A stretch of 63,868 nucleotides of DNA, filler included, from Nitrospinae bacterium RIFCSPLOWO2_12_FULL_45_22 (GTDB lineage Bacteria > 2-12-FULL-45-22): assembly GCA_001803565.1 (NCBI GenBank). It is 4 parts of 4 records of this genome, joined end to end, with 100 filler letters (N's around TTAATTAATTAA, not from the genome) between each part and the next. Parts side by side here need not be neighbours in the genome. Positions count along the whole stretch, not along the records: positions 55,943 to 63,868 come from MHDQ01000138.1; 3 more parts are not named here. The stretch is one strand, 5' to 3'. A model generated the notes under the pieces. It did no database searches. It had not been told where the DNA came from and was given only the letters and a program-made list of their open reading frames with translations. Shown piece by piece: positions 37,314 to 63,868 of this stretch (position 1 is its first letter; every line of letters begins with the position of its first letter). A program made the position numbers and the translations under genes.

Positions 37314-37500
37314 GTAATCATTCACCGCAGAGCACGCAGAGGGCACAGAGGAAAGCTCCTGTAACTCAAGGCTTTAGCCTTGATCAACCCTAAAGGGTTG
37401 ATTTACGGTCTTGGGTAACTCAGGGCTGAAGCCTGTCCCATATTTAATTCAGATTGTGTCCCATCTCAGCGTTCTCTGCGATCTCTGCGGTGAATGGTTA
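37314..37500. mobile_element. GTAATCATTCAC...GTGAATGGTTA MITE with nested CACCGCAGAG and GTAACTCA REP-like elements
   Basis: Nested inverted repeats read directly. Confidence 0.7.
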
Positions 37501-46267: not shown

Positions 46268-47662
46268 ATGAAGGTACTGTTTATATATCCCGATATTAAA
46301 TCGGGAAACTTTAAGAGCTTTCACTTCGGTATTGGCTCTATTGCAGCGGTTCTGAAAGAGGCCGGTCACGAAGTATCATTATTATATTTGCAAGACGAAC
46401 TGAAGAACGAAGAATTAGTGAAGAGGGTCAAAGAAGTCAATCCCGGCCTAATAGCCTTTTCTACTGGCACGCAGCAATGGCGGTATGTAAAGGAATACAG
46501 CCAGGCCCTTAAAACCGCCCTGGCTACCCCTATTATCTGTGGTGGTAACCATGCAACTCTAGCACCGGATGAAGTAATTGCTAATGGAAGCATAGATTGG
46601 GCCTGTGTAGGCGAAGGGGAGCTGGCCATGTTAGAGTTGGTGGCTAGGCTAGAGAAGGGGGAACCGGTTAAGGATATTGCCAATATCTGGCAAAGGACTA
46701 AAAAGAAGGTAATAAAGAATACCCCGCGGCCATTAATTGACGATTTAAACCCCTTACCCTTTCCTGAGCGGGATATTTTCCAGTGTGATAAGTTGTTAAA
46801 AGATAATGGCTATTATTTGACCGTAATGGCGGGCAGGGGTTGCCCTTATGCCTGCACCTATTGCTGCAACCCTGCCTTTAACCGCCTCTATGATGGGCAG
46901 GGGAGAGTTGTTAGAACGCGATCTCCTGAGAGGGTTATAGAAGAAATAACCGATCTACGGAGCCGGTATCGCATAGAGCTAATAGATTTTATGGATGAAG
47001 TTTTTCCCTTTAAAAGGGATTGGCTAACCCAATTCTGTCAGCTTTATTCCGAGAAAGTTCGGCTCCCTTTTCACCTGATGATCAGGCCAGAGATGGCCCA
47101 GAAAGGGAAGCTGAAACTATTGAAAGAAGCAGGCTGTGAGCAGGTTCGTATCGGAGTAGAATCGGGCAATGAAGAGTTCAGACGCACCCTCTTAAATCGT
47201 AATGTATCCAATAAAGATATTATTAAGGCCTTTGAGGAGGCCGACAAGCTCGGCCTAAAGACCTATTCTTTTAATATAGTGGGCCTGCCGGACGAAACCC
47301 CCGCCCTGATCCGCGATACTATAGCCCTGAATAAACTGATAAGGCCTAATCATATCCAGGTCTCGGTCTTTTATCCCTATCCCGGGACAGAGCTATATCG
47401 GCTCTGTCAGGAAAAAGGGTATTTTACCGGGGAGGAGCGGACTTCGTTCTTTGCCAACAAGTCTGTCCTCCAGATGCCCACCATTTCTACCAAAGAGATT
47501 GCCAGGCACTATAAAAGATTTGTACTTACGGCTTTACTAATAAAACTAAGGAAAGAAAAAATAGGATTGATCATTAATATATTAAAAACCTTCTTCAGGA
47601 GCCAGGGTAAATGGGGTCTTATCCGACATTATTATAAAGCCCTCCTTTTAGCCTTTAAATAA
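46268..47662 (+). CDS. Cobalamin-binding (class B) radical SAM protein
   Basis: GGNHAT and GEGE motifs, and RGCPYACTYC. Confidence 0.9.
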   Translation: MKVLFIYPDIKSGNFKSFHFGIGSIAAVLKEAGHEVSLLYLQDELKNEELVKRVKEVNPGLIAFSTGTQQWRYVKEYSQALKTALATPIICGGNHATLAPDEVIANGSIDWACVGEGELAMLELVARLEKGEPVKDIANIWQRTKKKVIKNTPRPLIDDLNPLPFPERDIFQCDKLLKDNGYYLTVMAGRGCPYACTYCCNPAFNRLYDGQGRVVRTRSPERVIEEITDLRSRYRIELIDFMDEVFPFKRDWLTQFCQLYSEKVRLPFHLMIRPEMAQKGKLKLLKEAGCEQVRIGVESGNEEFRRTLLNRNVSNKDIIKAFEEADKLGLKTYSFNIVGLPDETPALIRDTIALNKLIRPNHIQVSVFYPYPGTELYRLCQEKGYFTGEERTSFFANKSVLQMPTISTKEIARHYKRFVLTALLIKLRKEKIGLIINILKTFFRSQGKWGLIRHYYKALLLAFK

Positions 47663-49878: not shown

Positions 49879-50157
49879 TCTAAGGTAAAGAATTCCGGCA
49901 GTAACCCATACCTCTAAAGGTTTTGCATAAAGTGCGGATTACTACGAGAAAGCTGCCCCCAAGGAATTAAGCAATCCATTAGGTCTATCCCCTAATGTCG
50001 TCAGAAGGTGTGATATTTGCCCCCCACTAATTCTGCGCGGGCTTCACATTATCTTTTTGATTATTACCTACACCAGCCTTTGTAGAGATACCAGATCTAT
50101 TGTGAATTGTTGTACTGATCGAGCAAGTTAATCTAAGGAGCACCAATGGGGTGAGTT

Positions 50158-51381
50158 TCAAGGATAACTTCGTTCTGCTTCCTTTAACTGAGGGGTTATC
50201 AAAGCCCTTTCTGCCCGAGCTATCTCGTCCAGAAAGGCTTGATATTTTTTTTCTATGATAGGCCAGGAATAATTCTCTTTTACATAGCCTTCTCCATTGA
50301 TGGCTAACTGCTCCCCCAGGCGTTTATCCCGTAATAATCGCTCCAGAACAATCCTAAATTCGTCATAACTGTAATAAAACAACCCACCATTACTACGCAG
50401 GCATTGCCCCTTCAATACTGCGCACTTCCCATTAACGATAACGGGTGTCCGGGTCAGCCAACTCTCTAACAAAAGAATAGAGAAGCTTTCATAAGGCGAG
50501 GGCATGACTGCAGCCGCAGCCGCCTGGAGGGCATCAAACTTGTCTTCTTCAGACAGTTGTCCTAGATAGATGATATTAGGATGTTGAGGAATAGGCATAA
50601 TGGCATTACCTATCAAGACCAATTTCAGGGGGCTATTAGTCTCGCGCTGGTAACGGAGAAAGTAATAAACTATCTCCTGGCACCCTTTAGACTTATCAAC
50701 CCGGCCTACATAGATAATAAATTCTTCTTCTAAGCTATATTTACTCCTGAATCTCTGGCCATTAAAGTCTTTGGGCGGGTCAACTCCTACCCCGATAGTC
50801 TCTGAAGGGATATGATGATTATTGAACCGTTTCCACACCAGATCTGCTTCTTCAGGTGTAGAATAGATAATGGCTTTGGGGAGCAAAAAAAGCTCGTCGA
50901 ATATACTAAGATAGAGGGGTGGCTCATCATGGCCCAGGGGGATTAGGAGGGCCTTTTCTTTTACCCGGCGCAGGCCATAGTAGGTATGGGCATAGAGATA
51001 GGTGACAAAGATAAAAAAATCATATTCGCTGGCCCTTGCCTCTAAAGCCTGTTGCAGGGAAGAGGAACATGGGCCCTGTAGTTCCATCCAGCGCTCTTCT
51101 TCCTCTTTGGTATGTTCACTACCATAAATCTTTTGGGTTAACTGGTCAAAGGCCTTTATGTCGCGGGGATTATCTACCGGAAAGCGCCAGACTGTTATGC
51201 CATTAACCTCCCCTTTACCTTCAGGATACTCATTCCGCCAGCTCATATAATCTATGGCACAGGTAGTAAATACCTCAATAGTCCAGTATTTGCTGAGATG
51301 TTCTGCCAGGAGCCGACAGAGAAACTCTGCCCCACCCGTAACTTCTAAACCGTAGCGCTGAACTACAAAAGCAATCCTCAA
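50158..51381 (-). CDS. Glycosyltransferase family 4
   Basis: VQRYG..GGAE, YVGRVD..KG and PSPYESFS motifs. Confidence 0.9.
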   Translation of the reverse strand: MRIAFVVQRYGLEVTGGAEFLCRLLAEHLSKYWTIEVFTTCAIDYMSWRNEYPEGKGEVNGITVWRFPVDNPRDIKAFDQLTQKIYGSEHTKEEEERWMELQGPCSSSLQQALEARASEYDFFIFVTYLYAHTYYGLRRVKEKALLIPLGHDEPPLYLSIFDELFLLPKAIIYSTPEEADLVWKRFNNHHIPSETIGVGVDPPKDFNGQRFRSKYSLEEEFIIYVGRVDKSKGCQEIVYYFLRYQRETNSPLKLVLIGNAIMPIPQHPNIIYLGQLSEEDKFDALQAAAAAVMPSPYESFSILLLESWLTRTPVIVNGKCAVLKGQCLRSNGGLFYYSYDEFRIVLERLLRDKRLGEQLAINGEGYVKENYSWPIIEKKYQAFLDEIARAERALITPQLKEAERSYP

Positions 51382-51887
51382 CCCTGGTCCTTGCTCCCCT
51401 CAGGATTATCCAACCTTTGCTCCAGGATTTTACTGCGATCTTCTAGCGCCTGGCAGCGGTTCTTCAAGGCCTGATTTTCTGCCAGGAGCTTTTCTATTTC
51501 CTCCCGCAAAAAATTTATAAAGGCAGCTACTTGCCGATTAAATCTTACCTGCTTATGAAAAAACACACCCACCATGAATTGCACCGGTGATATCAAGAGT
51601 CGTTTACTCAGGACAATAAATCTCCCCAGCAACGGTCTATGTGATGTTATGCTATGCTCTCTGGTTATATCGGCGTACTCATTAAGCATCTTGAGATGGT
51701 ACAGGAATTTATCTTTGATAGGGATATTATCCGCTGCCGGTTGAATAGTAAGATTTTTTATCCTCTCGATCTCCGCCTCAGTATAGAGTCCCAGGGCTTT
51801 TTTTTGCTCTATCCGGCTCTGGATTTGCTGGATTAATGTCTTCAGATTAATGGTATTATCTCTTGTGGAGAATGTCTCACCCTTCAT
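51378..51887 (-). CDS. Coiled-coil hypothetical protein associated with glycosyltransferases
   Basis: ITSHRP..G...K...Q..FN pattern; overlaps the start of the GT4 gene. Confidence 0.65.
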   Translation of the reverse strand: MKGETFSTRDNTINLKTLIQQIQSRIEQKKALGLYTEAEIERIKNLTIQPAADNIPIKDKFLYHLKMLNEYADITREHSITSHRPLLGRFIVLSKRLLISPVQFMVGVFFHKQVRFNRQVAAFINFLREEIEKLLAENQALKNRCQALEDRSKILEQRLDNPEGSKDQG

Positions 51888-52182
51888 GGCTCAGCCTTTG
51901 TCGCGATCCAGTCCTTAACTCTTCCCGCATATTTCCGCAGACGATAACTATTTTATATAAGGAAAATTCCTATCCTTCCTGGCTACTCATTTTATTGGCC
52001 AAGTCTATATCATGTCAAGCGTTATTCGCAGGCTAAAGCCTGCACCTACCAATTTTTACCCCCGTAACTGAGGCGCTACCTGAATTGGGGAGGGAAAGAT
52101 TTTGGAGCTTGTTTTTATCTAATAATAAAGCTATTATATTGCTACAGTCTGTAAAATGTAAGATGAGTAAGGAGGAGAGAAG

Positions 52183-52374
52183 ATGTGTGATACTAATGTT
52201 TTTCTTTGGCAGGGTAATAAAGAAGAGATACTATTGCGGGAGGTGACCAAGGTCAAGCGGAAAGAGGGAAAACTTTACCTGAGTACCCTCTTCGGTGAAG
52301 AACGGGTCGTGGAAGCAGAGATAGAAGAGATTGATCTTTTAGGCCATAAGATTTTGTTGCGAGAGATCAGTTAA
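52183..52374 (+). CDS. cooT: CooT family nickel-binding protein
   Basis: N-terminal MC, LFGE and C-terminal H motif; 63 aa. Confidence 0.8.
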   Translation: MCDTNVFLWQGNKEEILLREVTKVKRKEGKLYLSTLFGEERVVEAEIEEIDLLGHKILLREIS

Positions 52375-52392
52375 TCTAGAAAAGGAGAGTTT

Positions 52393-52608
52393 ATGAGTCA
52401 GGAAATGGAAAGATTAAAAAAACTCTTAGAGCATTGGATAGAACATAACAGTTCTCATGCACAGAACTATAAAGAGTGGGCAGGTAAAGCTCAAGACGAT
52501 AAAAGACCTAATGTGGCTTTTGAACTAAACCAGGTAGCGGAATTGACAGATAAAATTACCCACCATTTCCAGCGGGCTAAAGAACTCCTTGAGGAGAGAG
52601 GAAAGTAA
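52393..52608 (+). CDS. Small His-containing helical protein, possibly metal-binding
   Basis: LLEHWIEHNSSH...W motif; AAGGAG RBS. Confidence 0.7.
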   Translation: MSQEMERLKKLLEHWIEHNSSHAQNYKEWAGKAQDDKRPNVAFELNQVAELTDKITHHFQRAKELLEERGK

Positions 52609-52661
52609 ATCTAGCCCGAGGTAATCTTTTTTCCTAACCAGCCCCTAAGGGCAAAAAACCT

Positions 52662-52754
52662 CTATTTCTTTTTGGAACCTTTCTTGCCAGTAGCTTTTTT
52701 AGGAGTGGGTTTTTTCTTTGCTTCTGCTTTTTTGGATTTGGCTTTTGTGGCCAT
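52662..52754 (-). CDS. 30-aa Lys/Ala-rich basic peptide (histone H1-like)
   Basis: AAGGAG RBS; MATKAKSKKAEAKKKPTPKKATGKKGSKKK*. Confidence 0.65.
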   Translation of the reverse strand: MATKAKSKKAEAKKKPTPKKATGKKGSKKK

Positions 52755-52961
52755 AGCCTCTCCTTCTCTGCTACCCCTTCAGCTATCGAGGGGCAGCGCA
52801 AAATTATGGTTGACCTTGATAGATTACCCCGGGCTAACGAGGAATTTTTGATAATTAAAAAAATTAGCACAAAAAAAATCCATGTCAAGAGAAAAATTTC
52901 AAAAAAATGAAAAATTTTAATATTTCTTTTAAATTACCCTTCTTTCCTTTCTTATTTAATC

Positions 52962-53939
52962 TTATTTCAATATTTCTTGTTTAACTACCTGACCCTTACG
53001 GAAAAAGAATCTACGGTCTATCTGACCATCAAAATCAGTATCCTCCTCTTGTCGTTCTAATTCGCCGGCTTGAAAATATGACCTTACATCTACCTTCCCA
53101 TCGCGGTTAGTATCTACTTCCTTTTTGCTCAACTGGCCGCCAACAAAGTACGCCTTCAGGTCTATCTGGCCATCAAAATCGGTATCCTTTTCCTGCTGGA
53201 GGAGTTCCTGCCCGGAATAGTAATCCCTCACATCAATAAGGCCGTCCTTATTTGTGTCTTCATCTCTCCTGCTAAGCTGACCATTCTGATAATAAAAAAA
53301 GATGTCTATCTCTCCATCATTGTCCCTATCCTCTTCCTGTCGTAATATCTTGCCACCCGCCCCGTAATATGACCATAGGTTTATCTTGCCATCCAGATCA
53401 GTATCCTCTTCCTCACGGACACGGGCGCCTTTCTCAAAATAGGCCAGCAGATCAGGGTAACGGTCACTATCTTTATCCTTCTCTATCCTGATTATCTCTC
53501 TATTAGAATAATAGAGCCAGGTATCCACAATATGATCATTATTAGTATCTCGCCACTCTCGCTCCATAACACCATTTTTATCCATAAAAAACCAGTGGTC
53601 AGGCTTGCCATCTCCATTAGTGTCCCGCTCTTGCCTATCTATTTTACCTTTCAAATAATAAGTCCAAAGGTCAACCCGACTATCATTATCGGTATCTTCT
53701 TCCTGTCGGTCTATTCCTTCCCCGACATAATATAGCCAAACCTCGATATCACCATCCCGGTCTAAGTCTTGTTCCTGTCGCACTAATCGCCCATCCTTAC
53801 GGATAAAGTGGACAACAGGCCCCTGTGGTGAAGCTTCTCTAGTCTCTTTTGTCTCGGCTCCCCAGATGTTCTCTAACTCGAACAAGGATAAAAGGAATAA
53901 GAGTAGCAGGGATAGGTAGATATAGAGGGGGTTTTTCAT
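52962..53939 (-). CDS. Secreted repeat protein with DxDxDG motifs
   Basis: Signal peptide followed by about 11 repeats of ~23 aa (E.DxDxDGxxDxxxYY..G). Confidence 0.75.
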   Translation of the reverse strand: MKNPLYIYLSLLLLFLLSLFELENIWGAETKETREASPQGPVVHFIRKDGRLVRQEQDLDRDGDIEVWLYYVGEGIDRQEEDTDNDSRVDLWTYYLKGKIDRQERDTNGDGKPDHWFFMDKNGVMEREWRDTNNDHIVDTWLYYSNREIIRIEKDKDSDRYPDLLAYFEKGARVREEEDTDLDGKINLWSYYGAGGKILRQEEDRDNDGEIDIFFYYQNGQLSRRDEDTNKDGLIDVRDYYSGQELLQQEKDTDFDGQIDLKAYFVGGQLSKKEVDTNRDGKVDVRSYFQAGELERQEEDTDFDGQIDRRFFFRKGQVVKQEILK

Positions 53940-55842
53940 TAGAAATGTTGTTTTACTACTTCGATGATTCCGGTAGCCTTCAAATTGTGCACCCGGGTAT
54001 ATTGGGCACCCATAGCCTCAGCAATACTCCTGACGCTTCGGTTGGGACTCCATCCCTCGCTCACATCTATAACTAAGGACTTGATCTGTTCACCCGTCCG
54101 GATATGCCGGGCGATGTTCAAGATTTCTTGCATTATCTTAGCAAAGCCCCACAAGGCGTAATAATTGAGAGCACATTTACCTTCCAGGAGACCTACATTG
54201 GCCCGGCCATCGGAGATAAGGATCAATAAGGGAGATGACTTTCGATCCTTACGTAAGTAGTTCTTGATAACCTGATACCCACAAATAAGCCCCTGTCCCA
54301 GGGGAGTACGACCACCGGTTGGTAAGTCTTCCAAAAGCTTTTTGGCCAACTCAATGCTATCGGTAGGAGGTAAAAGGACATCAGCGCTAGTCTCCCTAAA
54401 GGCTACCAGGCTTACTTTATCACGTTTCTGATAGGCATCGAATAACAAGGACATGATAGCCCCTTTGCTCTCGGTCATCAATTTTTCTCCCATAGAACCG
54501 CTGGCATCTACTACAAAGACCAGGAGGTTACCGGTTTTCCTCTCCCGGACCTTTTCCCGAATATCTTTCTCTTCAATAGCAATAGCTACGCCACGCTTAA
54601 CCCGCCTTGTCTGGTAAGGAGAAGCTGCCCGGATAGTGGCATCCAGTGCCACATCGTCATTACGTCTCTCCGAGGTACTGCGGATATAGCGGCCGCTCTT
54701 AGCCAGGGTTTTACTAGGGGTTCTTCGGCCCGCACCTATACGATAGTACTGGTCTTTTTTCAAGATCAGTGGGCGGACCTTAAAAGGTTGGCCAATGGGA
54801 AAGAGGGTTTCTAAGACGAATTGGCTGGTTCCCTCTGTCCCTTGTTCATCCAACTCTTCACCTAATTTCTGTCCGGGCCGGTCATCTTTTGCCTCTACTC
54901 GGAAAGGGACCGGCGAGCCATCTTTGCTGACTACTAGGGCTGGTTTAGTGGTGTAAGCATCGGTTTTAGTAAACCGGTCATGGCCCAGGGCGGCCTGGGG
55001 ACCGATAGGCTCCTGAGAATCATCGAAATAACCATCTTCTGCCGTGTCGGGGTCTGGTGCAGGTTTTTTTTGCGTATCAGCCTGTTTATTTTGCATTATC
55101 GGGGCATTAACCGCAGCCATGGCTGGGCGGGCCCTATGGGGCAGGATTAATTCTGCTGCGCGCGTTATCTCCTGAAAGGTTACCCGGTAGCGATCCTGCA
55201 AAGCAGCAATGGTCTTTGCTGTATTGGCGATAAGGATATCTGAGCGATGCCCGGCCACACCATTAGCTAGAGAAATCTCTATTATGGCCTCCATTAGCCG
55301 GGGAGAAATCTCTATTTTCTCCAATAACCCCCTGGCATGTATGATCTTCTCTCTCAACTGTTCCTGGTCTGGCACCCATTTGTTCAAAAAAGCCTGGGGG
55401 TCCTTATCAAACTCTTCCCGGTAGCGGCAGATAGCTACCCTTTGCTCTAAGTCACCACTGGCCTCTACTTCTACACACATCCCAAAACGGTCTAACAACT
55501 GGGGCCTCAACTCTCCTTCTTCGGGGTTCATAGTACCTATTAAGATAAACTCTGCTGGATGCCTAAATGAGATTCCTTCCCGCTCAATAAAATTTATCCC
55601 AGTAGCCGCAGCATCTAGCAATAGATTAACCAGGTAATCGTCCAAAAGGTTTATCTCGTCTACATACAAGATGCCCCGATTGGCCGAGGCCAATATCCCG
55701 GGTTCTACTTTTCTCTCGCCTTGTTTGAGGGCCTGTTGAAAATCAATCCCCCCTACTAGCCGGTCTTCTGTCACTCCTAAAGGCAGCTCGATCACCCTGA
55801 CTTGCCGCCAGGCAACCGGCAGCTTACCTTCTCGCTCCCAGA
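53939..55842 (-). CDS. ChlD/BchD-like chelatase subunit (AAA+ plus vWA), 5'-truncated
   Basis: [30 protein letters not shown] and DASGSM motifs. Confidence 0.9.
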
Positions 55843-55942
55843 NNNNNNNNNNNNNNNNNNNNNNNNNNNNNNNNNNNNNNNNNNNNTTAATTAATTAANN
55901 NNNNNNNNNNNNNNNNNNNNNNNNNNNNNNNNNNNNNNNNNN
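55843..55942. other. Artificial contig-joining linker
   Basis: N-TTAATTAATTAA-N. Confidence 0.97.
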
Positions 55943-56719
55943 ATTATTTATCAACTTAAGGATGTATCTTTGCCCTCCGCTATTCAGGGCCTTGCGGATC
56001 TGGCCTAAGGAACCACAGAGCCTGATCTTGCCCTGGTCGATGATAGCCATCCGGTCGCACAACTGCTCTGCCTCTTCCAGGTTATGGGTAGCCAGAAAGA
56101 CCGTCTTCCCATTTTCCAATACCAGCTTATTCCGTAAGAATTCCCTGAGCTTGTGCGCAGCTATCGGGTCCAGGCTCTTGGTCGGCTCATCCATTAAAAG
56201 TGTGCCTGGATTAGTCAGGAGTGCCCGGGCAATAGAGAGCCGTTGCCGCATACCGGTGGAATAGTCCTTGAACATCCGGTCAGCATGATCTTCCAGCTCC
56301 ACCTGCTGTAATACTTCTTTTACCCTACCCTGGGCTTCTGCCCGGGAGAGGTTATTCAGCGTAGCAAAGAAGATCAGGTTTTGTCGGCCCGTGAGGCGCC
56401 AGGAGAAGCTCCTTTCATCACTGACCACATAGCCAATAGCCCGCCTGATCTCCCTGCCATTCTTCACAACATTGTATCCATGGACATAGGCCTGCCCTGC
56501 ATCAGGCAGGATCAAGGTGCATAGGATCTTTATCAGGGTAGTCTTACCGGCCCCATTGGGTCCTAGCAGACCGAACAATTCCCCCTCCTCTACCTGGATA
56601 CTTACCCGATCCAGGGCCAGGACTTCCTTCCGCTGGAAGGGATGGAAGACTAAATCCCCATAGCCTTTGGCCTGCAAAAACCGCTTGGTTAAGTCAATAG
56701 TCTCAATAGCAAAACCCAT
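55943..56719 (-). CDS. ABC-2 type transporter ATP-binding protein, 3'-truncated
   Basis: GPNGAGKT, YSTGM, LLMDEPT and TH motifs. Confidence 0.92.
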
Positions 56720-56919
56720 CGAGTATTATCCTTTAAGCAGGATGAATAACGCAATCTATATTTAATCTCCTCTAGGCCCCTTCTTACCGGAGAAGGCTCT
56801 TTTTTGTTGGCTTGGCCCCTCATAGGCTACAAGAGAAAAGCAAGGATTCCTCTTTATAAAGGTTTTCTGAACTGATAGAGATATTGACAAACCGATAAAA
56901 AACTAATATAGAATAAGAA

Positions 56920-57168
56920 ATGAAAGAAGATAAAATTTATCATAAGGCTAAGACTAACCCTTATGGACTTCGATTCAATGAGTTTTGTAATCTTATCGAG
57001 GCCTTTGGATTTATCCATCGCCGTCAAAAAGGTAGCCATGTCATTTATGGTCGGCCAGACATCCCGGAATTTGTTAATATTCAGAGCGATAGAGGAAAGG
57101 CTAAAAGTTATCAAGTTAAGCAATTCTTGCAACTTATTGAAAAATATGATTTAAGGATGGAGGAATAG
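56920..57168 (+). CDS. hicA: HicA family toxin
   Basis: KGSH...AKSYQVKQ motif. Confidence 0.85.
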   Translation: MKEDKIYHKAKTNPYGLRFNEFCNLIEAFGFIHRRQKGSHVIYGRPDIPEFVNIQSDRGKAKSYQVKQFLQLIEKYDLRMEE

Positions 57169-57170
57169 GA

Positions 57171-57395
57171 GTGAAAAGAAAATTTAAATATCGTATAGAA
57201 GTAAGCTATAGCCAGGAAGATGATTGTTACATAGCTATAGTGCCTGAGCTGAAGGGATGTAATACATTCGGTGATACACCGGAGGAGGCGGTAAAAGAAG
57301 TAGAGACAGCTATTGAGCTGTGGATTGAGCTTGCTAAAGAAATGGGACGGGAAATACCAGGGCCAGCCTCCAAACCTTATATCTTCTCGCATTAA
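57171..57395 (+). CDS. hicB: HicB family antitoxin
   Basis: VPELKGC.TFGDTPEEA...W.E...G.EIP motif. Confidence 0.88.
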   Translation: MKRKFKYRIEVSYSQEDDCYIAIVPELKGCNTFGDTPEEAVKEVETAIELWIELAKEMGREIPGPASKPYIFSH

Positions 57396-57538
57396 CCTAT
57401 AATCCTACTATCTTCCAGGAAAATAAAATCTCCAGACGTGCCATTCCTTTCTTTATGATGTCACCTGGTAAGCTGCCCACCCGGTCTTTCCTGAAGATTT
57501 ATTAGTGTTACTAATCGACCTTTTTAGTGTAACTAATA

Positions 57539-57949
57539 CTATCCCTTCTGAGCTTTCAGCTCAATGATAAAGCCGCTGAAGGCGGCCAGGCAATCTACCA
57601 GAATATCTCGTAACTGGAATGAACGGAATGGGACCGTGGACTGATAGAACTCATCCATCACACCATAGAAGCAGGTAAAGATCAGGGTAGTAATCAGGCC
57701 TACCTGCCTCATCTTATTACCCTGCTCTTGATGGATAAATACCCCTTTAGCCAGTTGGAAGAGGACAAAATAGAGGAAGAAATGGGCCGGGTATTGGACA
57801 GAATCACCGAATACCTGCTTCAGGAAAGAAAATTTCTTTACAATAAGAGCAGCCGAGGGTGTAGATAGGTAGAAGATAAATACCATCCACCCCATAGTGG
57901 CCAGTAAGGATATCACGGTGCGATAGCGTAGCCATAAAAGCTTATCCAC
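57539..57949 (-). CDS. VanZ family membrane protein
   Basis: IFYLS, HFFLY and DEFYQSTVPFR....D motifs. Confidence 0.82.
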   Translation of the reverse strand: MDKLLWLRYRTVISLLATMGWMVFIFYLSTPSAALIVKKFSFLKQVFGDSVQYPAHFFLYFVLFQLAKGVFIHQEQGNKMRQVGLITTLIFTCFYGVMDEFYQSTVPFRSFQLRDILVDCLAAFSGFIIELKAQKG

Positions 57950-58207
57950 AAATAGACTCTATCGGCGAAGTCCGAAAAGCATTAACCCACATCCAGGGCG
58001 ACCAATCTCAGGTAGCACCTAAGCAAGGGCATCCTAAGTTCACCATTGCTACTGCCCAACGGTAGCAGATACAGGCTCTGGATATCTACTGGAATCTTAC
58101 ATTTTGCCTTCGGCAAATCCTTATCCGCTAAGCATCTTTCATTGCTACCGATGGATTCAGGATTAATGTAATTTAGCGGTGTTGACTCCCAGAATCAGGA
58201 TCTGTTC

Positions 58208-58264
58208 CTGAAAAAGGGTAGCCTGAATTGAGCAACCGCCCACCCAGGACACCCCCCCTTTCAG
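58208..58264 (-). terminator. Stem-loop just 3' of the precursor gene
   Basis: On the minus strand CTGAAAGGGGG pairs with CCCTTTTTCAG. Confidence 0.4.
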
Positions 58265-58281
58265 TATCCCACCCCGGAAGT

Positions 58282-58422
58282 TTAGCCACCAGATAACCAG
58301 TTATTAACTGCATCGATAATAAAGCTACCTACGTCATCGCCGCTACATGCACATGTACCGGCTAGTGAAGTAGCTTCCAGCCGCTCAGACTTAATCTCTG
58401 GCTTGACATATTTTCGTTTCAT
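58282..58422 (-). CDS. RiPP precursor peptide, 46 aa, absent from the ORF track
   Basis: The GGAGG RBS overlaps the rSAM stop. MKRKYVKPEIKSERLEATSLAGTCACSGDDVGSFIIDAVNNWLSGG* carries a YxxPxI leader. Confidence 0.85.
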   Translation of the reverse strand: MKRKYVKPEIKSERLEATSLAGTCACSGDDVGSFIIDAVNNWLSGG

Positions 58423-58426
58423 ATCT

Positions 58427-59485
58427 TCACCTCCTCTCAGGCGGGATGGCCCCCTGGCATAGCCAGTGGGCTTGCCGGCAGTATCCTGCCGAACACTGGA
58501 AGATATCTCCCTTTTCCAGATAATTTACCCCCAGGCAGGGGGTACAAAAAGGCAAGATATCACACTGAACACATTGCGAAAGATTCGATAAGCTAGCAGC
58601 CCTTATTTGCTTTAATACCTCTGGAGGAGCTGTCTGCCAGATATCCCTAAAGCTATTTTTTCGCAGGCTCCCCAGACCGCTGGGAATCAGCACGCAGGGA
58701 TATACCAATCCCTGGGGAGAGATACTGCATAAGGATCGGCCGGCATTGCAAAAATCCTTTTTGCTAAGTTGAGATTCCGACAAACTTTTGCTGCCTGCCT
58801 GCCCAAGGCTCAATCTCTTACCAGTTGCCCATTGAGACAGGTACCTCTTCCAATCCTCTTCAGAAATCTGGTACTGTAGCGGATTCCGGGAGCCATCTAC
58901 CTTTGGAATAACCATAGGACCGATGCTAAACCTTGCCCCTAATCTCCGGGCTATATCCTTTAGCCCCTCATATTCATGGATATTCTCTCTCATCATGGTG
59001 CTCTTAATAACAGTAGGTATCTGCTCCCTTTGCAGGAGACCGAGGGCATTTATCGTTCTGATGTAAGAACCAGATACCCCGGTAATCGCATCATGAACTT
59101 GGGGGCTGGCCCCATAGAGGCTAATCTCCACCTGGGTAATCCCTATCTCTTTCAGGCATTGAACTATGGACGGGGTTATAAAAGTTCCGTTGGTAAGGAG
59201 GATAACGACGAAATGCTGCCCGGCAAACCGGATTATCTCTGATAAATCCTCCCGGAGGAATATCTCTCCCCCGGACAAGGCCAGACTGACCGTTCCCATC
59301 TCCTGGAGTTGTTTCAGGATATCGATAATTTCCGGATAGGTGAGCTCATCCCCCTCTTCCTTATCTACGACATAGCAATGGCAGCAATCCAGATTACAGC
59401 GGTGAGTCAACTCGAAATGGACCCCCCAGGGTAAACAGAACTCCCTATATTTATTCTGTATAGCAGTAATCAAGCTAGCCGGCAT
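58427..59485 (-). CDS. Radical SAM/SPASM peptide maturase
   Basis: CNLDCCHC and SGGE motifs. SPASM domain C...GxVYPC...CxxCx5CxxC...C. Confidence 0.9.
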   Translation of the reverse strand: MPASLITAIQNKYREFCLPWGVHFELTHRCNLDCCHCYVVDKEEGDELTYPEIIDILKQLQEMGTVSLALSGGEIFLREDLSEIIRFAGQHFVVILLTNGTFITPSIVQCLKEIGITQVEISLYGASPQVHDAITGVSGSYIRTINALGLLQREQIPTVIKSTMMRENIHEYEGLKDIARRLGARFSIGPMVIPKVDGSRNPLQYQISEEDWKRYLSQWATGKRLSLGQAGSKSLSESQLSKKDFCNAGRSLCSISPQGLVYPCVLIPSGLGSLRKNSFRDIWQTAPPEVLKQIRAASLSNLSQCVQCDILPFCTPCLGVNYLEKGDIFQCSAGYCRQAHWLCQGAIPPERR

Positions 59486-59528
59486 ATTTTTATCTCACAA
59501 GTGGGGCTATTTTCTGTCAGAAAAGACC

Positions 59529-59602
59529 GTAACTCAACCCTTCAGGGTTGATCAGTCAGAGTCTGCCCTGGGCTTGTCGAAGGGGCTAAAGCCCTGAGTT
59601 AC
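59529..59602. repeat. GTAACTCA...TGAGTTAC REP-like element with a nested GCCCTG..GTCGAAGG mini-repeat
   Basis: Related copies at 37361-37406 and 60815-60863. Confidence 0.7.
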
Positions 59603-59641
59603 GCCTACTTCATGACAAAGAATACCCCCACCCTATTTTTC

Positions 59642-60472
59642 CTACAAGCTTTCGATGAGGTGCCAGAAGCTATTGTCCTGCGTAAAATGCAGCTCATAGC
59701 AAGGTATTTTATTGACCAGCCCGGAGACGAGCCTTAATACCTCTGAGATAGCTTCTATTCGATTATCAGAGAAATTAGCGGGATAAAAGAGAAGGGGAAA
59801 GAGTTTTATACCTGCATCTATACCCTTAATCCTCTGGACATAAGAGATATTATCCTTTCTAAGGATAAATATCCCCCTCAGCTTCTTAGTCAAATCAGTA
59901 GAGGCATAAAAATCGCCCTTTACAGGTGTCCCTTTCAGCCAGTATTCCCCGTTGATGTTACTAATAAGGACCAGTTCGTCGTTAATCGCAATACCTTCTG
60001 GATGAGACAATCTGGATATTGTTGTCTTGCCACTGCCCGATGGGCCGGCAAAGACATAACCTTTATCATCTCTGATAATACCGGCTGCATGTAAAAAAAC
60101 ACTATCCTCCTGCCCCTTTTTTAAGATATAAAAGGCGCTTATCAGCAGAGACAAAAGGTAAGCAGGGTGGAGGGGGTTAGCTGCCTCTTCAAATAACACC
60201 TTGATTTTCGTTCCCCCACGGCGGAAATATCCCCTAACCCCTCTATCCCCATAGCCGATTTCTTGCCACTCGGGGTCGCTCAGGATTTCTGCACTCTTGA
60301 CACGTCCGGCTGGCAAAAATCCTATCTCAAGGCTGATCTGGGGCTTATGATTATGATCAGGTAAGATAAAAGAGTTTCGTAGACTCTTGATAAAGGGTTC
60401 ATTAATGGATATTATCGAAAAAGACACCCCACCAAGCTCCAGGTCAATCCGATTATTCTCTTCCCCAGGCAT
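59642..60472 (-). CDS. HPr-kinase-related P-loop protein (ScmC-like RiPP accessory kinase)
   Basis: LHAAG, GPSGSGKTT and NDE motifs, ending PCYELHF....FW. Confidence 0.8.
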   Translation of the reverse strand: MPGEENNRIDLELGGVSFSIISINEPFIKSLRNSFILPDHNHKPQISLEIGFLPAGRVKSAEILSDPEWQEIGYGDRGVRGYFRRGGTKIKVLFEEAANPLHPAYLLSLLISAFYILKKGQEDSVFLHAAGIIRDDKGYVFAGPSGSGKTTISRLSHPEGIAINDELVLISNINGEYWLKGTPVKGDFYASTDLTKKLRGIFILRKDNISYVQRIKGIDAGIKLFPLLFYPANFSDNRIEAISEVLRLVSGLVNKIPCYELHFTQDNSFWHLIESL

Positions 60473-60860
60473 ATATTATCTCCTGGTAACAGTTAACAGG
60501 GTTCAGGAAAAGACTTTAAATTAGTAACAGGTATAGGCAGAGGCATAGGTAGAGAATTTCCTGTACCTCTACCTCTTCTTATTTGGAGATTGCGCTAAGG
60601 GTTAAATGCCCGTGAAGGTCTTTGAAGAAAAGCCTTTCTGGCCTGTCTGCCAAGGCACAGGCAGGAATGTCATTCCGAGCGAAGCGAGGAATCTTGTATT
60701 TTAACGGTATAGAAGATTTCTCCCTTTGGTCGAAATGACAACTTTATTTGGTCGTTTACTATAAGTTATATGCCTTTATACATCCAGATTAAGTTACCTG
60801 CTTTTTATACATCCGTAACTCAGGGCTTTAGCCCTGACAGGTCAACCCTAAAAGGTCGAG

Positions 60861-61136
60861 TCACTCCCTTTTTACGTTCTCCTTAAACTCAACCACCCCT
60901 TTTTCAGAAAGGATACGGATAAATTCAGCGGTATCCTGCCGGGCTGTGCTCTCTTCTACCTCAAATTCCTGGCATATCTTCAAGATAATCTCTTCTACCG
61001 TCATAGCGCCATCCGCGCAGTTCCAGATTTCAGTCCCTACTTCATTTAAGACATGGAACCATTCCCCATCTTCGCCTATGATAATGGTTTCACCGTCTAC
61101 TACTCTCCAGATACATTTCGATCGTTTTATATACAT
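60861..61136 (-). CDS. PqqD family RiPP recognition element (RRE)
   Basis: WRVVDGETII...LNEVGTEIW...DG...I...F.V...A..D..F...L..G pattern. Confidence 0.92.
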   Translation of the reverse strand: MYIKRSKCIWRVVDGETIIIGEDGEWFHVLNEVGTEIWNCADGAMTVEEIILKICQEFEVEESTARQDTAEFIRILSEKGVVEFKENVKRE

Positions 61137-61160
61137 AAAATCTTCTTCCTCCCTTTTACT

Positions 61161-61760
61161 CTAATGTCCTGGCCAGGCAGCCCTTACTAATATAGCTACC
61201 ATGATCCTATGCGCCGATAAGACAGGTTTCTTTGCGGCCCGATATAGCCATTTAAAAAATACTAATTCATACTGCCCATTAAGCCTTTGCTGGAAGTATC
61301 CCAGCCTTCTTCCAAGCAGATAGGCGCCATAAAAATAGACAGCAAATAGACGATTAATCAGTCCCCCCCAACCCCTATCTATCCTTAGAAGGTTATATTC
61401 CCCTCTTTTAATAGCCACCACCTTGCCCAGTACACTACTGGCCGGGATCTGCACCGCTATACTTCCTCGATCGCCTTTCTGCCAGAAAAAGAGCCCCTCA
61501 TCGTCCCTATATTTGCCGATCACCCGATGGGTAATGAAGGTGCCGTCTTCTGAGAAGACAATAATATCACCGAATCTTATCTCTCCTGCAGGAACCCGTT
61601 GGGCCAGCACCCGATCGTTTACCTCAATCAGGGGCATCATGCTGCCCGAGGTGATACGGAACCAGGCCTTCCCATTTCGGGCAAAATACTCTGCCCAGAG
61701 TTCCTTAATCATCTCTTTAGGCAGAGAAAACCCGTTCTTTTTCTCACCAATGTTCAGCAT
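61161..61760 (-). CDS. S26/S24 family peptidase (Ser-His type)
   Basis: SGSMMP, GDIIVF, THRV and KGD motifs. No N-terminal TM helix before the catalytic Ser. Confidence 0.85.
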   Translation of the reverse strand: MLNIGEKKNGFSLPKEMIKELWAEYFARNGKAWFRITSGSMMPLIEVNDRVLAQRVPAGEIRFGDIIVFSEDGTFITHRVIGKYRDDEGLFFWQKGDRGSIAVQIPASSVLGKVVAIKRGEYNLLRIDRGWGGLINRLFAVYFYGAYLLGRRLGYFQQRLNGQYELVFFKWLYRAAKKPVLSAHRIMVAILVRAAWPGH

Positions 61761-61918
61761 AAACTCCATCCGCAAATTAACAATTGACCCTTTTTCCCTT
61801 TGACAGGCACAACTATATTATATATTCTAAATACATAGTATAACCCATTTAGGGAGGTGCATTATGGATACGGTTCGTTAAATATTACTCTGCCAAAAGA
61901 ACTGGCCCGGCAGTTAGA
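61731..61918 (+). repeat. ~190-bp direct repeat, copy 1
   Basis: Near-identical to 63680-63868. Confidence 0.92.
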
Positions 61919-62132
61919 TAAGTTGGTTGGATCCAGAAAAAAGAGTCGTTTCATCACCGAAACCCTGACCCAAAGGATAAAGCAAATTCAGCATGAAGAA
62001 CTTCAGAAACTTTTGGAAGAAGGCTATCGTGCCACCAAACAAGAGGGCCTTGCTATAGCAAAAGAGTTTGAACCCATAAAAATCTTCGGAAGATCTATCC
62101 CTTTGAGGTATTCTTACCTATTTCTCCTTTAA
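61864..62132 (+). pseudogene. Ribbon-helix-helix antitoxin-like gene with a 1-bp frameshift
   Basis: GGAGG RBS, then ATG GAT ACG GTT CG-, lacking one G that is present in the second copy (MDTVRLNI...). NITLP...KSRFI...L.EGY pattern. Confidence 0.75.
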
Positions 62133-62462
62133 CTCATTAATGATCCTCTCAAACTTCTTCATTATCTGTTCGATAGACATTTCAGGAGTTTTCTCATGTC
62201 GCTCTGGGTACTCAATGGGATGATAATGCCAGTTGTCCAAATTATCTATACCGAAAATGCGATCTTTATCCTTGATCAAAGCAAAATCAACGCGTCTTTT
62301 TCTATAGCCATAGAAAATGTCGATAAATAGAGAGGAAGTAATCATAACCCTAACTTTTAGTCTTAATACGTTAAATTCATTTAACTCAACTTTAGCAGAA
62401 GGGAAGTACCTCTTGATGCTCTGTTCCACTTCCTGGAGGAATTCCTTAACTGAAATGAACAT
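62118..62462 (-). CDS. DUF6516/TumE-like toxin-type protein
   Basis: FALIK...IFGIDN...WHYHP motif. Confidence 0.6.
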   Translation of the reverse strand: MFISVKEFLQEVEQSIKRYFPSAKVELNEFNVLRLKVRVMITSSLFIDIFYGYRKRRVDFALIKDKDRIFGIDNLDNWHYHPIEYPERHEKTPEMSIEQIMKKFERIINELKEK

Positions 62463-62785
62463 TACTTTTGAAATATCTCCTCCTGGATGTTGCGCAATTG
62501 AGAAAGGATCAGGGTGTGTTCATCATCGAGGCTTTCCCACTCCATATAATCTCGCTCAACCGGATGAGAGTATTTATCAGGGATAAGGTTACTTTCCCAG
62601 GCATCTTTAAATTCATTGAAACTCATGCCATATTTGCTTTCAAAGGAATAAATTCGGTCTAAACAAGCCCTCAAACTTTGCTTCAAATCGCTAACTACCA
62701 GATGCATTAATTTATCATCTATTGTTTCCCCTTCTATATATTCTAAGGCTGATTTCACGGCTTTTGGAATGTTATTTATTTCCAC
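62462..62785 (-). CDS. Antitoxin-like hypothetical protein
   Basis: FESKYGMSFNEF...DYMEWE motif; coupled to the downstream gene. Confidence 0.65.
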   Translation of the reverse strand: MEINNIPKAVKSALEYIEGETIDDKLMHLVVSDLKQSLRACLDRIYSFESKYGMSFNEFKDAWESNLIPDKYSHPVERDYMEWESLDDEHTLILSQLRNIQEEIFQK

Positions 62786-63044
62786 AACCTTATCTCCTTC
62801 TTAAAAGGCTACCGTCTTTTTGTGAAATTTCGGAAGTTTTCTGATGTTGATTTGGATTCCAAATAGGATGATAATGCCATTCAGGTAGATTATCAATACC
62901 TAAGTTTATCAGTGGCGATGAGTGTTTATCTGATTTCATCCGTGAAGACATTTGTAATCCCAAGAATGTCGATCTGTCAGGCTAGTGAGTAATAGTATAA
63001 CAAGGAGTTCCACTCTGCAGCTACATTGCAGCAGATGAGCTTGA

Positions 63045-63680
63045 GTTTCTCGCTTATTTTTTTTGTAACCGTTCACCCGGTTCCCTTTGGGTGCTGCCAC
63101 TAAGGCACAAAAAGACCATGTAGCCGCAGGGCCTTGCCCTGCTAAGATGGCAGCGTAAGACGCTGCTGCTACCTTTCCTTAGTGCTTTGATGGCTGAACG
63201 GGTACTTTTTTTTTAAACCCGTGAATTTACCGAAGATTATATTTTAGAAATTCAATTTTGAGCCATTGTAAACCGTTATAAAAACGTAATAGCACAACTC
63301 TCAATATTGTCATTTCGACCGAAGGGAGAAATCTTTGTTTTGCCGATAGCAGAAATCTTTACCCTTCAGAACACAGGTCGTTCCAGGTTGGATTAATCTG
63401 ATTAACCAATTGGTTCTTTTTCTCCCTTCGCCAGTTACTTCAACTCCGCTTCAGTACAAGCCTTAATTTCTTTTTCCCTAGCAATAGCTGCAGTTACATC
63501 ACTTTATTGTTCCAGTTTGTTAGCAAATAAACATAATAACCTTCTGCCATAGACGTTTAAGATTTCTCCCGGAGTTTACCCTGAGCTCCAATAAAAGATT
63601 CCTCGCTTCGCTCGGAATGACAGGGGCGAAGGGGTCGGAATGACATTATTCATACCTTTTGTTAAAAATAAGCGAGAGAC
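63045..63680. mobile_element. Composite non-autonomous element bounded by GTYTCTCGCTTATTTTT inverted repeats
   Basis: Inverted repeats at 63045-63061 and 63664-63680. Contains a GTAACCGTTCA MITE and a REP-flanked GIY-YIG remnant. Confidence 0.55.
63359..63550 (-). pseudogene. GIY-YIG nuclease remnant with an internal deletion and a mini-repeat insertion
   Basis: Three fragments: MAEGYYVYLLTNWNNKVM, DVTAAIAREKEIK and NWRREKKNQLVNQINPTWNDL. Flanked by TGTCATT...AATGACA REP arms. Confidence 0.85.
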
Positions 63681-63868
63681 CCGTTCTTTTTCTCACAAAT
63701 GTTCAGCATAAACTCCATCCGCAAATTAACAATTGACCCTTTTTCCCTTTGACAGGCACAACTATACTATGTATTTTAAATACATAGTATAACCCATTTA
63801 GGGAGGTGCATTATGGATACGGTTCGGTTAAATATTGCTCTGCCAAAGGAACTGGCCCGGCAGTTAGA
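63680..63868 (+). repeat. ~190-bp direct repeat, copy 2, containing the intact antitoxin start (ATG 63813); runs off the window end
   Basis: MDTVRLNIALPKELARQL is in frame. Confidence 0.9.

Follow-up and report, generated by a model that had tools for sequence, protein, structure and literature searches.

The best described counterpart of the locus reported here is the LPP system of Paenibacillus alginolyticus (lppA-K-B-S-D-N; Popov et al., Nat Commun 2026, PMC13381572), in which, according to the main text of that study, the precursor leader (YxxPxVLxHQxIxFETxxS) is bound by LppB, a discrete recognition element (RRE) for peptides that are ribosomally synthesized and modified post-translationally (RiPPs). 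By the same account, the HprK-like LppK puts several phosphates on Ser3 of the core, and the SipW-like LppS, with catalytic residues S29/H68/D93, removes the leader after F-E-T; LppS is inactive without LppB, the unphosphorylated precursor is processed poorly, and the core gene set includes an MsbA-like pump and an NTP transferase. The present locus lies in a 63,868-nucleotide stretch of DNA from Nitrospinae bacterium RIFCSPLOWO2_12_FULL_45_22 (hereafter the window), composed of 4 parts joined by 100-N fillers, in which parts lying side by side are not necessarily neighbors in the genome. Here, a 46-codon open reading frame (ORF) adjoining a radical S-adenosylmethionine (rSAM)/SPASM gene is likely to encode the precursor of an RRE-dependent rSAM/SPASM peptide-maturation operon.

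As far as the main text of the LPP study allows the comparison, both systems combine a short precursor and a Y-x-x-P-x-(V/I) leader with a discrete PqqD-type RRE, an HprK-like P-loop kinase (putative in the window), and a signal-peptidase-like Ser/His(/Asp) leader peptidase of the SipW/archaeal type that lacks the customary membrane anchor (likewise putative in the window). Several differences were also found. The window has an rSAM/SPASM enzyme, whereas the main text of PMC13381572 contains 0 occurrences of radical SAM, rSAM, or SPASM (its supplements lie outside this scope). The ABC transporter ATPase of the window is of the DrrA type and not MsbA-like as the LPP pump is in that main text, and neither an NTP transferase nor an MsbA-like exporter was detected in a scan of 24 ORFs, of which 15 surround the operon at 55895-62785. 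Moreover, the leader shares only YxxPx(I) with LPP and lacks the remainder of the motif given there (VLxHQxIxFETxxS), and the hosts of the cassette are uncultivated anaerobe-type lineages, not Bacillota.

With the sactipeptide and ranthipeptide systems of SkfB, AlbA, StsB, and PapB, the locus has in common an rSAM/SPASM enzyme with a full Cys complement, an RRE, a leader-core precursor, and invariant cysteines. The leader of the window family also bears a weak resemblance to the sactipeptide precursor StsA, whose model is touched by three of 15 family peptides (best E 3e-4), the window peptide scoring 16.5 bits against a cut-off of 42. However, the RRE is separate in the window and fused to the enzyme in those systems, and their curated models were not reached (AlbA 92.6 of 850 bits, SkfB 81.5 of 300, StsB 99 of 625). 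Compared by main texts with described clusters of this kind, the window adds kinase-like and signal-peptidase-like partners; indeed, neither a kinase nor a signal peptidase is mentioned in the main texts of PMC10288494 and PMC7470986, whose precursor groups sit in supplements, outside this scope.

Other cassettes resemble the locus in part. The best peptide-maturase-type matches of its P-loop, PqqD, and rSAM proteins include ScmC, ScmD, and ScmE of the SynChlorMet (SCM) cassette, none of the SCM equivalogs being reached (ScmC 32.3 of 125 bits, ScmD 28 of 100, ScmE 120.6 of 400, ScmF 82.8 of 400). The SCM cassette has two rSAM enzymes, whereas the window cassette has a single rSAM gene. No mention of the SynChlorMet cassette was found in the literature search. 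Phosphorylated lasso peptides of the paeninodin type share with the window a leader with Y/WxxP, a PqqD RRE that is a separate protein, and a kinase resembling HprK (putative in the window), according to the main text of PMC13381572, and a passage of PMC4289311 notes the HPr kinase in lasso clusters. In contrast to these clusters, the window has an rSAM enzyme instead of the cyclase and B2 protease, neither a lasso macrolactam cyclase nor a B2 cysteine protease being present among the operon ORFs scanned.

Literature searches found no description of rSAM, HprK-like kinase, PqqD, and signal-peptidase-like proteins in combination, nor the motif strings of the family. Signal peptidase, HprK, RiPP, and leader peptidase were brought together, within the literature searched, only by the LPP paper (PMC13381572, main text). 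PMC13692751 deals in its available part with a different system and was set aside.

The peptide gene and its relatives

The operon is encoded on the minus strand in the order signal-peptidase-like Ser/His protease, PqqD, HprK/PEPCK-fold P-loop protein, rSAM/SPASM enzyme, and, as the last gene, the peptide (Table 1). An earlier prediction made for this DNA (hereafter the original prediction) had proposed the 46-residue ORF as a precursor, and its translation was matched exactly. The rSAM gene terminates AGG AGG TGA, and the GGAGG that had been proposed as the ribosome-binding site of the peptide gene indeed lies within these final codons, with a gap of 7 nt to the ATG at 58420-58422; the start described as 5 nt past the rSAM stop corresponds to four intervening bases, the ATG opening at the fifth. 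Judged from this arrangement of signals, translation of the peptide gene is coupled to that of the rSAM gene. Contigs from four further metagenome runs contain the peptide gene letter for letter (0 differing letters), which shows presence only and provides no variants from which selection might be gauged. A second 46-aa ORF on the same strand (58173-58313), overlapping the 3' end of the peptide ORF, was rejected as a gene since no support for it was found.

Table 1. Features of the peptide operon and of its surroundings in the window
Feature	Coordinates	Strand	Remarks
Precursor peptide gene	58282-58422	-	46 residues + TAA; translation MKRKYVKPEIKSERLEATSLAGTCACSGDDVGSFIIDAVNNWLSGG
Proposed leader, residues 1-21	58360..58422	-	MKRKYVKPEIKSERLEATSLA; inferred boundary, possibly one residue later
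Proposed core, residues 22-46, and stop	58282..58359	-	GTCACSGDDVGSFIIDAVNNWLSGG; Cys24 58351-58353, Cys26 58345-58347
Ribosome-binding site GGAGG of peptide gene	58430-58434	-	Read from sequence; within last rSAM codons
Structured 3' region	58185..58281	-	From folding; long imperfect hairpin, inner stem then U5
Radical SAM/SPASM enzyme	58427..59485	-	352 aa, without fused RRE; Pfam Radical_SAM E 1e-20, SPASM E 1.8e-7
Spacer with short repeated palindromic element	59486..59641	-	Between P-loop and rSAM genes; outside pathway
HprK/PEPCK-fold P-loop protein (ScmC-like)	59642..60472	-	276 aa; putative peptide kinase
Discrete PqqD-family RRE	60861..61136	-	91 aa; PF05402 E 6.1e-17
Signal-peptidase-like protein (S24/S26 fold, SipW/archaeal type)	61161..61775	-	204 aa; putative leader peptidase
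VanZ-like gene	57539-57949		First downstream of peptide
hicA toxin / hicB-like antitoxin	56920-57168, 57171-57395	+	PF07927 E 8.6e-9 / PF15919 E 3.2e-10; between VanZ-like gene and ABC ATPase
ABC transporter ATPase, cassette-linked type	55895..56719	-	NCBIfam: DrrA-type subfamilies
Mg/Co-chelatase-like gene	53939-55795		After ABC ATPase, in place of permease

The length of 46 codons alone is not beyond chance, 107 ORFs of at least 30 aa being present in 50000-63868; the ORF rises above chance because of its homology and its conserved position. A word-indexed search of 5.8 billion proteins retrieved, besides the peptide, one relative of 45 aa with 76% identity (E 9e-13). The rSAM enzyme had 1640 relatives at E<=1e-20 among 5191 candidates, including 18 full-length proteins (P0008-P0025) that were 40-54% identical, and an alignment of the 8 closest enzymes was used to scan contigs of genomes and metagenomes, yielding 53 + 73 loci (126), with L054 representing the window itself and L001 being the same locus as L063.

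The original prediction had staked itself on similar peptides occurring beside homologous rSAM genes, and this is what was found. An rSAM enzyme at least 36% identical was encoded in 15 distinct non-self loci (L002, L055-L068), and a family peptide lies close to the rSAM gene in 12 of them. L002 and L055-L063 have it directly downstream, L064 has it upstream of the P-loop gene, and L066 has it just downstream on the opposite strand. In L065, a check of the three forward frames across the 500 nt that surround and follow the rSAM stop revealed no family peptide, and none was present in L067 and L068, whose contigs stop at the end of the rSAM gene or 141 nt beyond it. The independent count is below 12/15 because L059/L061 and L060/L062 are near-duplicates. 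The more distant loci L004 and L006 carry family peptides as well, and leader-like peptides not accepted by the family profile are present in L010 and L053. The small ORF of L053 (7679-7942), located by a distant rSAM homologue, is Gly/Cys-rich and has a similar leader, KKYTEPAIKYL (profile E 0.23).

The family itself proved sizeable. Of 308 candidates, a profile of 15 peptides matched 75 at E<=10, with 66 reaching E<=1e-3, and none of these 75 is named beyond hypothetical protein or has a Pfam domain. A full HMMER search of 1.84 billion cluster representatives gave 72 matches at E<=0.001, all of them unnamed, and seven at E<=1e-10, three long proteins among the matches being probably spurious. 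Taken as a matter of sequence comparison, the 46-codon frame is a genuine gene for a small peptide. It follows the general pattern of RiPP precursors in being short and enzyme-adjacent, with a conserved leader and a variable core, and in being kept across loci.

The partners of the peptide recur with it. Searches with tblastn over the 126 loci (L054 and duplicates counted) detected homologues of PqqD in 22, of the P-loop protein in 21, of the ABC ATPase in 16, and of the peptidase in 12, the PqqD homologues adjoining the rSAM gene in all 22. The relatives keep this gene set, mostly in another arrangement and in many cases with an ABC exporter behind it. L056, L058, L064, and L002 are arranged as P-loop, PqqD, rSAM, (peptide), peptidase, ABC, except that L064 has its peptide upstream of the P-loop gene. 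The module occurs in uncultivated Desulfobacterales, Dehalococcoidia, Omnitrophota, and other lineages.

Two loci show further arrangements. L055 (8196-11014), a metagenome contig, contains two complete tandem cassettes (P-loop, PqqD, rSAM, peptide, peptidase), and the peptides that they encode differ strongly in their cores, one being of the CxC archetype like that of the window and the other ending in AWWS. In L001 (7011-7256, equal to L063 6011-6256), from Dehalococcoidaceae, the ORF after the rSAM gene has two in-frame leader-like repeats, MKEPCEKPKM... and then MKEPYEEPEM..., which could represent either a tandem pair of precursors or a duplication of the leader.

Leader, enzymes, and core of the proposed pathway

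The leader motif of the family is K-x-x-Y-x-K-P-x-I-x-[ST]-E. Across the alignment of 15 peptides, P8 never varies and at least 90% have Y5, in agreement with the precursor-type peptide with a Y-x-x-P-x-I leader adjoining an rSAM gene that had been anticipated; a separate PqqD/RRE gene is present in the operon. Among 76 peptides (P0001, P0006, P0127-P0196, and four ORFs from the loci, without the three hits whose E exceeded 1), the positions counted from the invariant Pro were K at -6 in 70, Y at -3 in 75, K at -1 in 72, I/M at +2 in 73, T/S at +4 in 69, E at +5 in 70, A/V/S/T at +11 in 62, and G/A at +13 in 57, the counts for the aromatic residue, Pro, and +2 being partly circular because the regular expression demanded these residues (I/L/M/V at +2) and the profile was built from motif-bearing peptides.

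Prediction of the complex between the PqqD protein and the peptide gave weak support, with a score of 0.48 (runs 0.48, 0.50, and 0.47) versus 0.00 for the best control, with at least 70% of contacts shared between runs and a partner pLDDT (predicted local distance difference test) of at least 57. The mark applied to such scores is reached by 58 of 80 solved complexes and two of 110 mismatched pairs; scores of up to 0.60 comprise seven of the 80 solved complexes and both mismatches, and passes in this range are more often wrong than right unless the pairing was likely beforehand. The pass may moreover reflect mere likeness, because similar complexes have already been solved.

In the window peptide, the +13 position is Ala21, which gives the S-L-A | G cut proposed in the original prediction. 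A leader cut of the signal-peptidase type is plausible, given the S24/S26-fold Ser/His protease in the operon, the small residues at +11 (62/76) and +13 (57/76), and the experimental evidence in the main text of PMC13381572 for a SipW-like leader peptidase in LPP. Nevertheless, SLA|G is no more than a candidate for the exact site, because LppS, by the same text, cuts after F-E-T and not at a small-x-small or A-x-A site.

In the rSAM protein, the CxxxCxxC cysteines C30/C34/C37 and nine C-terminal cysteines (C246, C253, C264, C305, C308, C314, C317, C331, and C336) are invariant in the 8 closest homologues; CxxxCxxC and SPASM cysteines together with a PqqD-like element in the cluster are the general features of RRE-dependent rSAM/SPASM RiPP systems. 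Its best solved relatives are SkfB (E 3.8e-18) and then PqqE (E 9.9e-15). Among NCBIfam models, the PqqD protein comes closest to the lasso-type PqqD chaperone and to GeoRSP PqqD, without reaching the cut-off of either. The P-loop protein, which besides ScmC matched the HprK-related kinases A (E 2.9e-6) and B (E 2.3e-4), both under their cut-offs, had no Pfam match; it displays the conserved motifs LHAxG, GPSGSGK(S/T)T, and NDE. Its model (pLDDT 86.6; predicted TM-score, pTM, 0.84) retrieved ATP-dependent PEP carboxykinases as the top Foldseek matches (E 6.8e-9, TMq ~0.5), HPr kinase/phosphatase being a weaker match (1ko7_A, E 1.8e-4, rank 50). This HprK/PEPCK fold lends plausibility to the earlier suggestion that Ser/Thr residues are kinase targets.

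The peptidase scored 51.2 bits with TIGR02228 (sigpep_I_arch), just below the cut-off of 51.85, and weakly matched Pfam S24 and S26. The SGSMxP serine box is kept in the alignment, His is present in 8/8 homologues and Asp (KGD box) in 7/8, and no hydrophobic N-terminal membrane anchor was found. Its model (pLDDT 83.5) resembles SipA (4n31_B, E 1.1e-4), the LexA C-domain, and the human signal peptidase complex (7p2q_A, E 4.1e-4). By sequence and fold it is a putative leader peptidase of the LPP (SipW/archaeal) type, with predicted catalysis.

The importance that had been attached to Cys24 and Cys26 was upheld by the comparison of relatives. In the six closest peptides only M1, Y5, P8, C24, and C26 are invariant, and Cys24 and Cys26 are therefore the sole invariant residues of the core. 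A subfamily of 17 distinct members among 129 candidates shares the archetype of the window, in which CxC comes straight behind the leader and an aromatic residue stands close to the C-terminus: all 17 have CxC, and in all 17 an aromatic is among the final 7 residues. In the larger archetype the core is roughly YG(Q/E)Y...QPFFGLCC or ...CPPC, with the cysteines at the C-terminus. Nearly every core of the family has at least two Cys.

A route of four steps would fit these features. The PqqD protein would bind the leader (approximately residues 1-21), and the rSAM/SPASM enzyme would cross-link the core through Cys24 and Cys26, for which thioether bridges to downstream residues, yielding a small hairpin, are the most likely outcome, at what we consider an even chance. 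The P-loop protein would then phosphorylate a Ser or Thr residue of the peptide, as LppK does in LPP (candidates are T23, S27, S33, S44, and S12 of the leader); by analogy, this activity is a serious possibility that falls slightly short of even. Finally, leader removal near Ala21/Gly22 would fall to the soluble Ser/His signal-peptidase-like enzyme, to which the RRE would present the site. The product, we infer, would be a hybrid RiPP of an uncharacterized kind, cross-linked through its cysteines and probably phosphorylated. Tentatively, the locus could represent an undescribed RiPP class in which the kinase/RRE/signal-peptidase-like module of LPP is joined to an rSAM/SPASM enzyme, the mature product being a phosphorylated thioether hairpin of the rarer N-terminal-CxC archetype and phosphorylation gating leader removal as it does in LPP.

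If this is true, one enzyme family would form bridges that run opposite ways along the peptide, from the N-terminal CxC in one archetype and from QPFFGLCC or CPPC in the other, and the module would unite two logics described separately, rSAM cross-linking and the kinase plus SipW-like peptidase route reported in 2026. It could also reveal the recruitment of a signal-peptidase-like enzyme as a cytoplasmic leader peptidase outside Bacillota. Gene callers usually miss RiPP precursors, and an orphan rSAM enzyme without a substrate cannot be studied; a likely substrate is now identified for a conserved five-gene module of uncultivated bacteria, and the two core archetypes, with at least 72 cluster representatives, offer a natural substrate panel for reconstitution.

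Weighing the alternatives

Several observations weigh against the proposed pathway, to which the circularity of the leader counts and the uncertain cut site also belong. The rSAM enzyme falls below every NCBIfam cut-off, StsB, AlbA, and SkfB included, and its reaction is not readable from homology for this reason. Among the six closest peptides, none of the possible acceptor residues is conserved. The P-loop protein resembles HprK proper only weakly, and in the larger sister subfamily the core, with its C-terminal cysteines, is often without Ser/Thr, so a single shared kinase site is not obvious. The surroundings of the locus show a shortened ATPase, a missing permease in the window, and a nearby hicAB insertion.

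Among the competing explanations, the best surviving one accepts a true precursor and assigns another chemistry to the rSAM enzyme, such as a C-C or C-O cross-link on the conserved aromatic residue, epimerization, or a different change at Cys, with the cysteines acting as metal ligands or forming a disulfide. The rSAM protein is no nearer to sactisynthases than to the AhbD/NirJ, MftC, PqqE, and WgkB models, PqqE, its second-best solved relative, is a C-C cross-linker, and the CxC, CC, and CPPC motifs of the family would also suit metal binding. Nevertheless, we consider this explanation rather unlikely, as the invariance of the cysteines alone in the cores of the subfamily and the presence of at least two Cys in nearly all family cores correspond to the pattern of a Cys-donor cross-link, and SkfB, the best solved relative, forms thioethers.

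An improbable alternative, although one for which the surroundings provide some grounds, is that the locus is a decaying remnant here, in which peptide and enzymes are encoded and the mature product is not exported. Compared with the cassette-linked ATPase of L056, the ABC ATPase shows 61% identity over residues 1-257 of 334 and is about 75 residues short at the C-terminus. An ABC-2 permease comes after the ATPase in L056, L064, L002, and L062; a search with the L056 permease gave no match in the window (E<1), and the Mg/Co-chelatase-like gene stands in its place, positions 55,943-63,868 of the window being those from MHDQ01000138.1. In addition, hicA/hicB and the VanZ-like gene lie between the peptide and the ATPase, and the repeat element lies between the P-loop and rSAM genes. 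The locus may thus be partly decayed, and export from it is left doubtful because the ATPase is shortened and no permease gene is present in the window. On the other hand, the five core reading frames are all intact with conserved catalytic motifs, the coupled ribosome-binding site is intact as well, and the peptide gene is identical in the four other metagenome runs, which argues against decay.

Slightly less probable again is the chemistry of the original prediction, namely ranthionine-type thioethers from Cys24/Cys26 to Asp29/Asp30/Asp37 together with a Trp42-Leu-Ser three-residue cyclophane. Three-residue cyclophanes (triceptides) have a conserved aromatic-X-X motif, the third residue of which donates its beta-carbon. 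Although the subfamily does keep an aromatic residue near its end, in the six closest peptides position 42 is W in four and F in two, and the third residue of the motif is Pro in 1/6 and Gly, which offers no beta-carbon, in 2/6, so that neither W-L-S nor a triceptide motif is conserved among them. In favor of acidic acceptors, the rSAM enzyme PapB makes Cys-to-Asp/Glu thioethers, according to the available part of PMC9413430, and 14/17 subfamily members have an acidic residue up to 8 residues past CxC, a frequency that a rough estimate places near that expected from composition alone. However, 3/17 members have no acidic residue in those 8 positions, and Asp29, Asp30, and Asp37 vary among the six closest peptides, as does Ser44; a role of these Asp residues as fixed acceptors is not supported. 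The original prediction was thus partly supported, being right in kind and wrong or unsupported in the fixed Asp acceptors and the W-L-S cyclophane.

Finally, that the frame is a chance ORF without a product, as the commonness of ORFs of such length (107 in 13.9 kb) might suggest, is hardly credible in view of homologues down to E 9e-13, a site beside the rSAM gene kept in 12/15 loci, a consensus ribosome-binding site, and a start, M-K/R-K/R-x-Y, conserved across the subfamily.

The 3' region and neighboring genes

The strong hairpin that had been noted after the ORF is present. The 131 nt past the peptide stop fold at -52.5 kcal/mol, compared with a mean of -39.66 (sd 4.04) for shuffled sequences (z = -3.18), none of the 200 shuffles folding as stably, and the hairpin is likely the end of the operon. 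A simple scan for consensus terminators in 55500-63868 gave seven sites versus 8.5 expected, none of them in 57901-58281, and Rfam gave no match in 57400-62200 at E<=1.

Downstream of the peptide, two minus-strand ORFs (56854-57132 and 57111-57392) were considered as cassette genes and rejected, since the plus strand encodes hicA/hicB there; they are probably not genes at all. For two small ORFs upstream of the peptidase gene (62118-62785 on the minus strand and 61857-62132 on the plus strand), neither Pfam nor NCBIfam gave a match, and the related loci have nothing corresponding to them; a weak ribbon-helix-helix match (E 0.0012) was seen on the plus strand upstream of the same gene. A B12-binding radical SAM protein is encoded at 46268-47662 on the plus strand, 11 kb off the cassette, with no link seen to it; its matches to HpnJ (145 bits) and to the lipid-biosynthesis B12/rSAM family (144.6) are both under cut-offs. 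As for the palindromic repeat of the spacer between the P-loop and rSAM genes, partial copies were found at 37361-37412 and 60814-60834, and the summed contig depth from four metagenome runs climbs from about 4 to about 110 at 59501-59600, with many loose ends.

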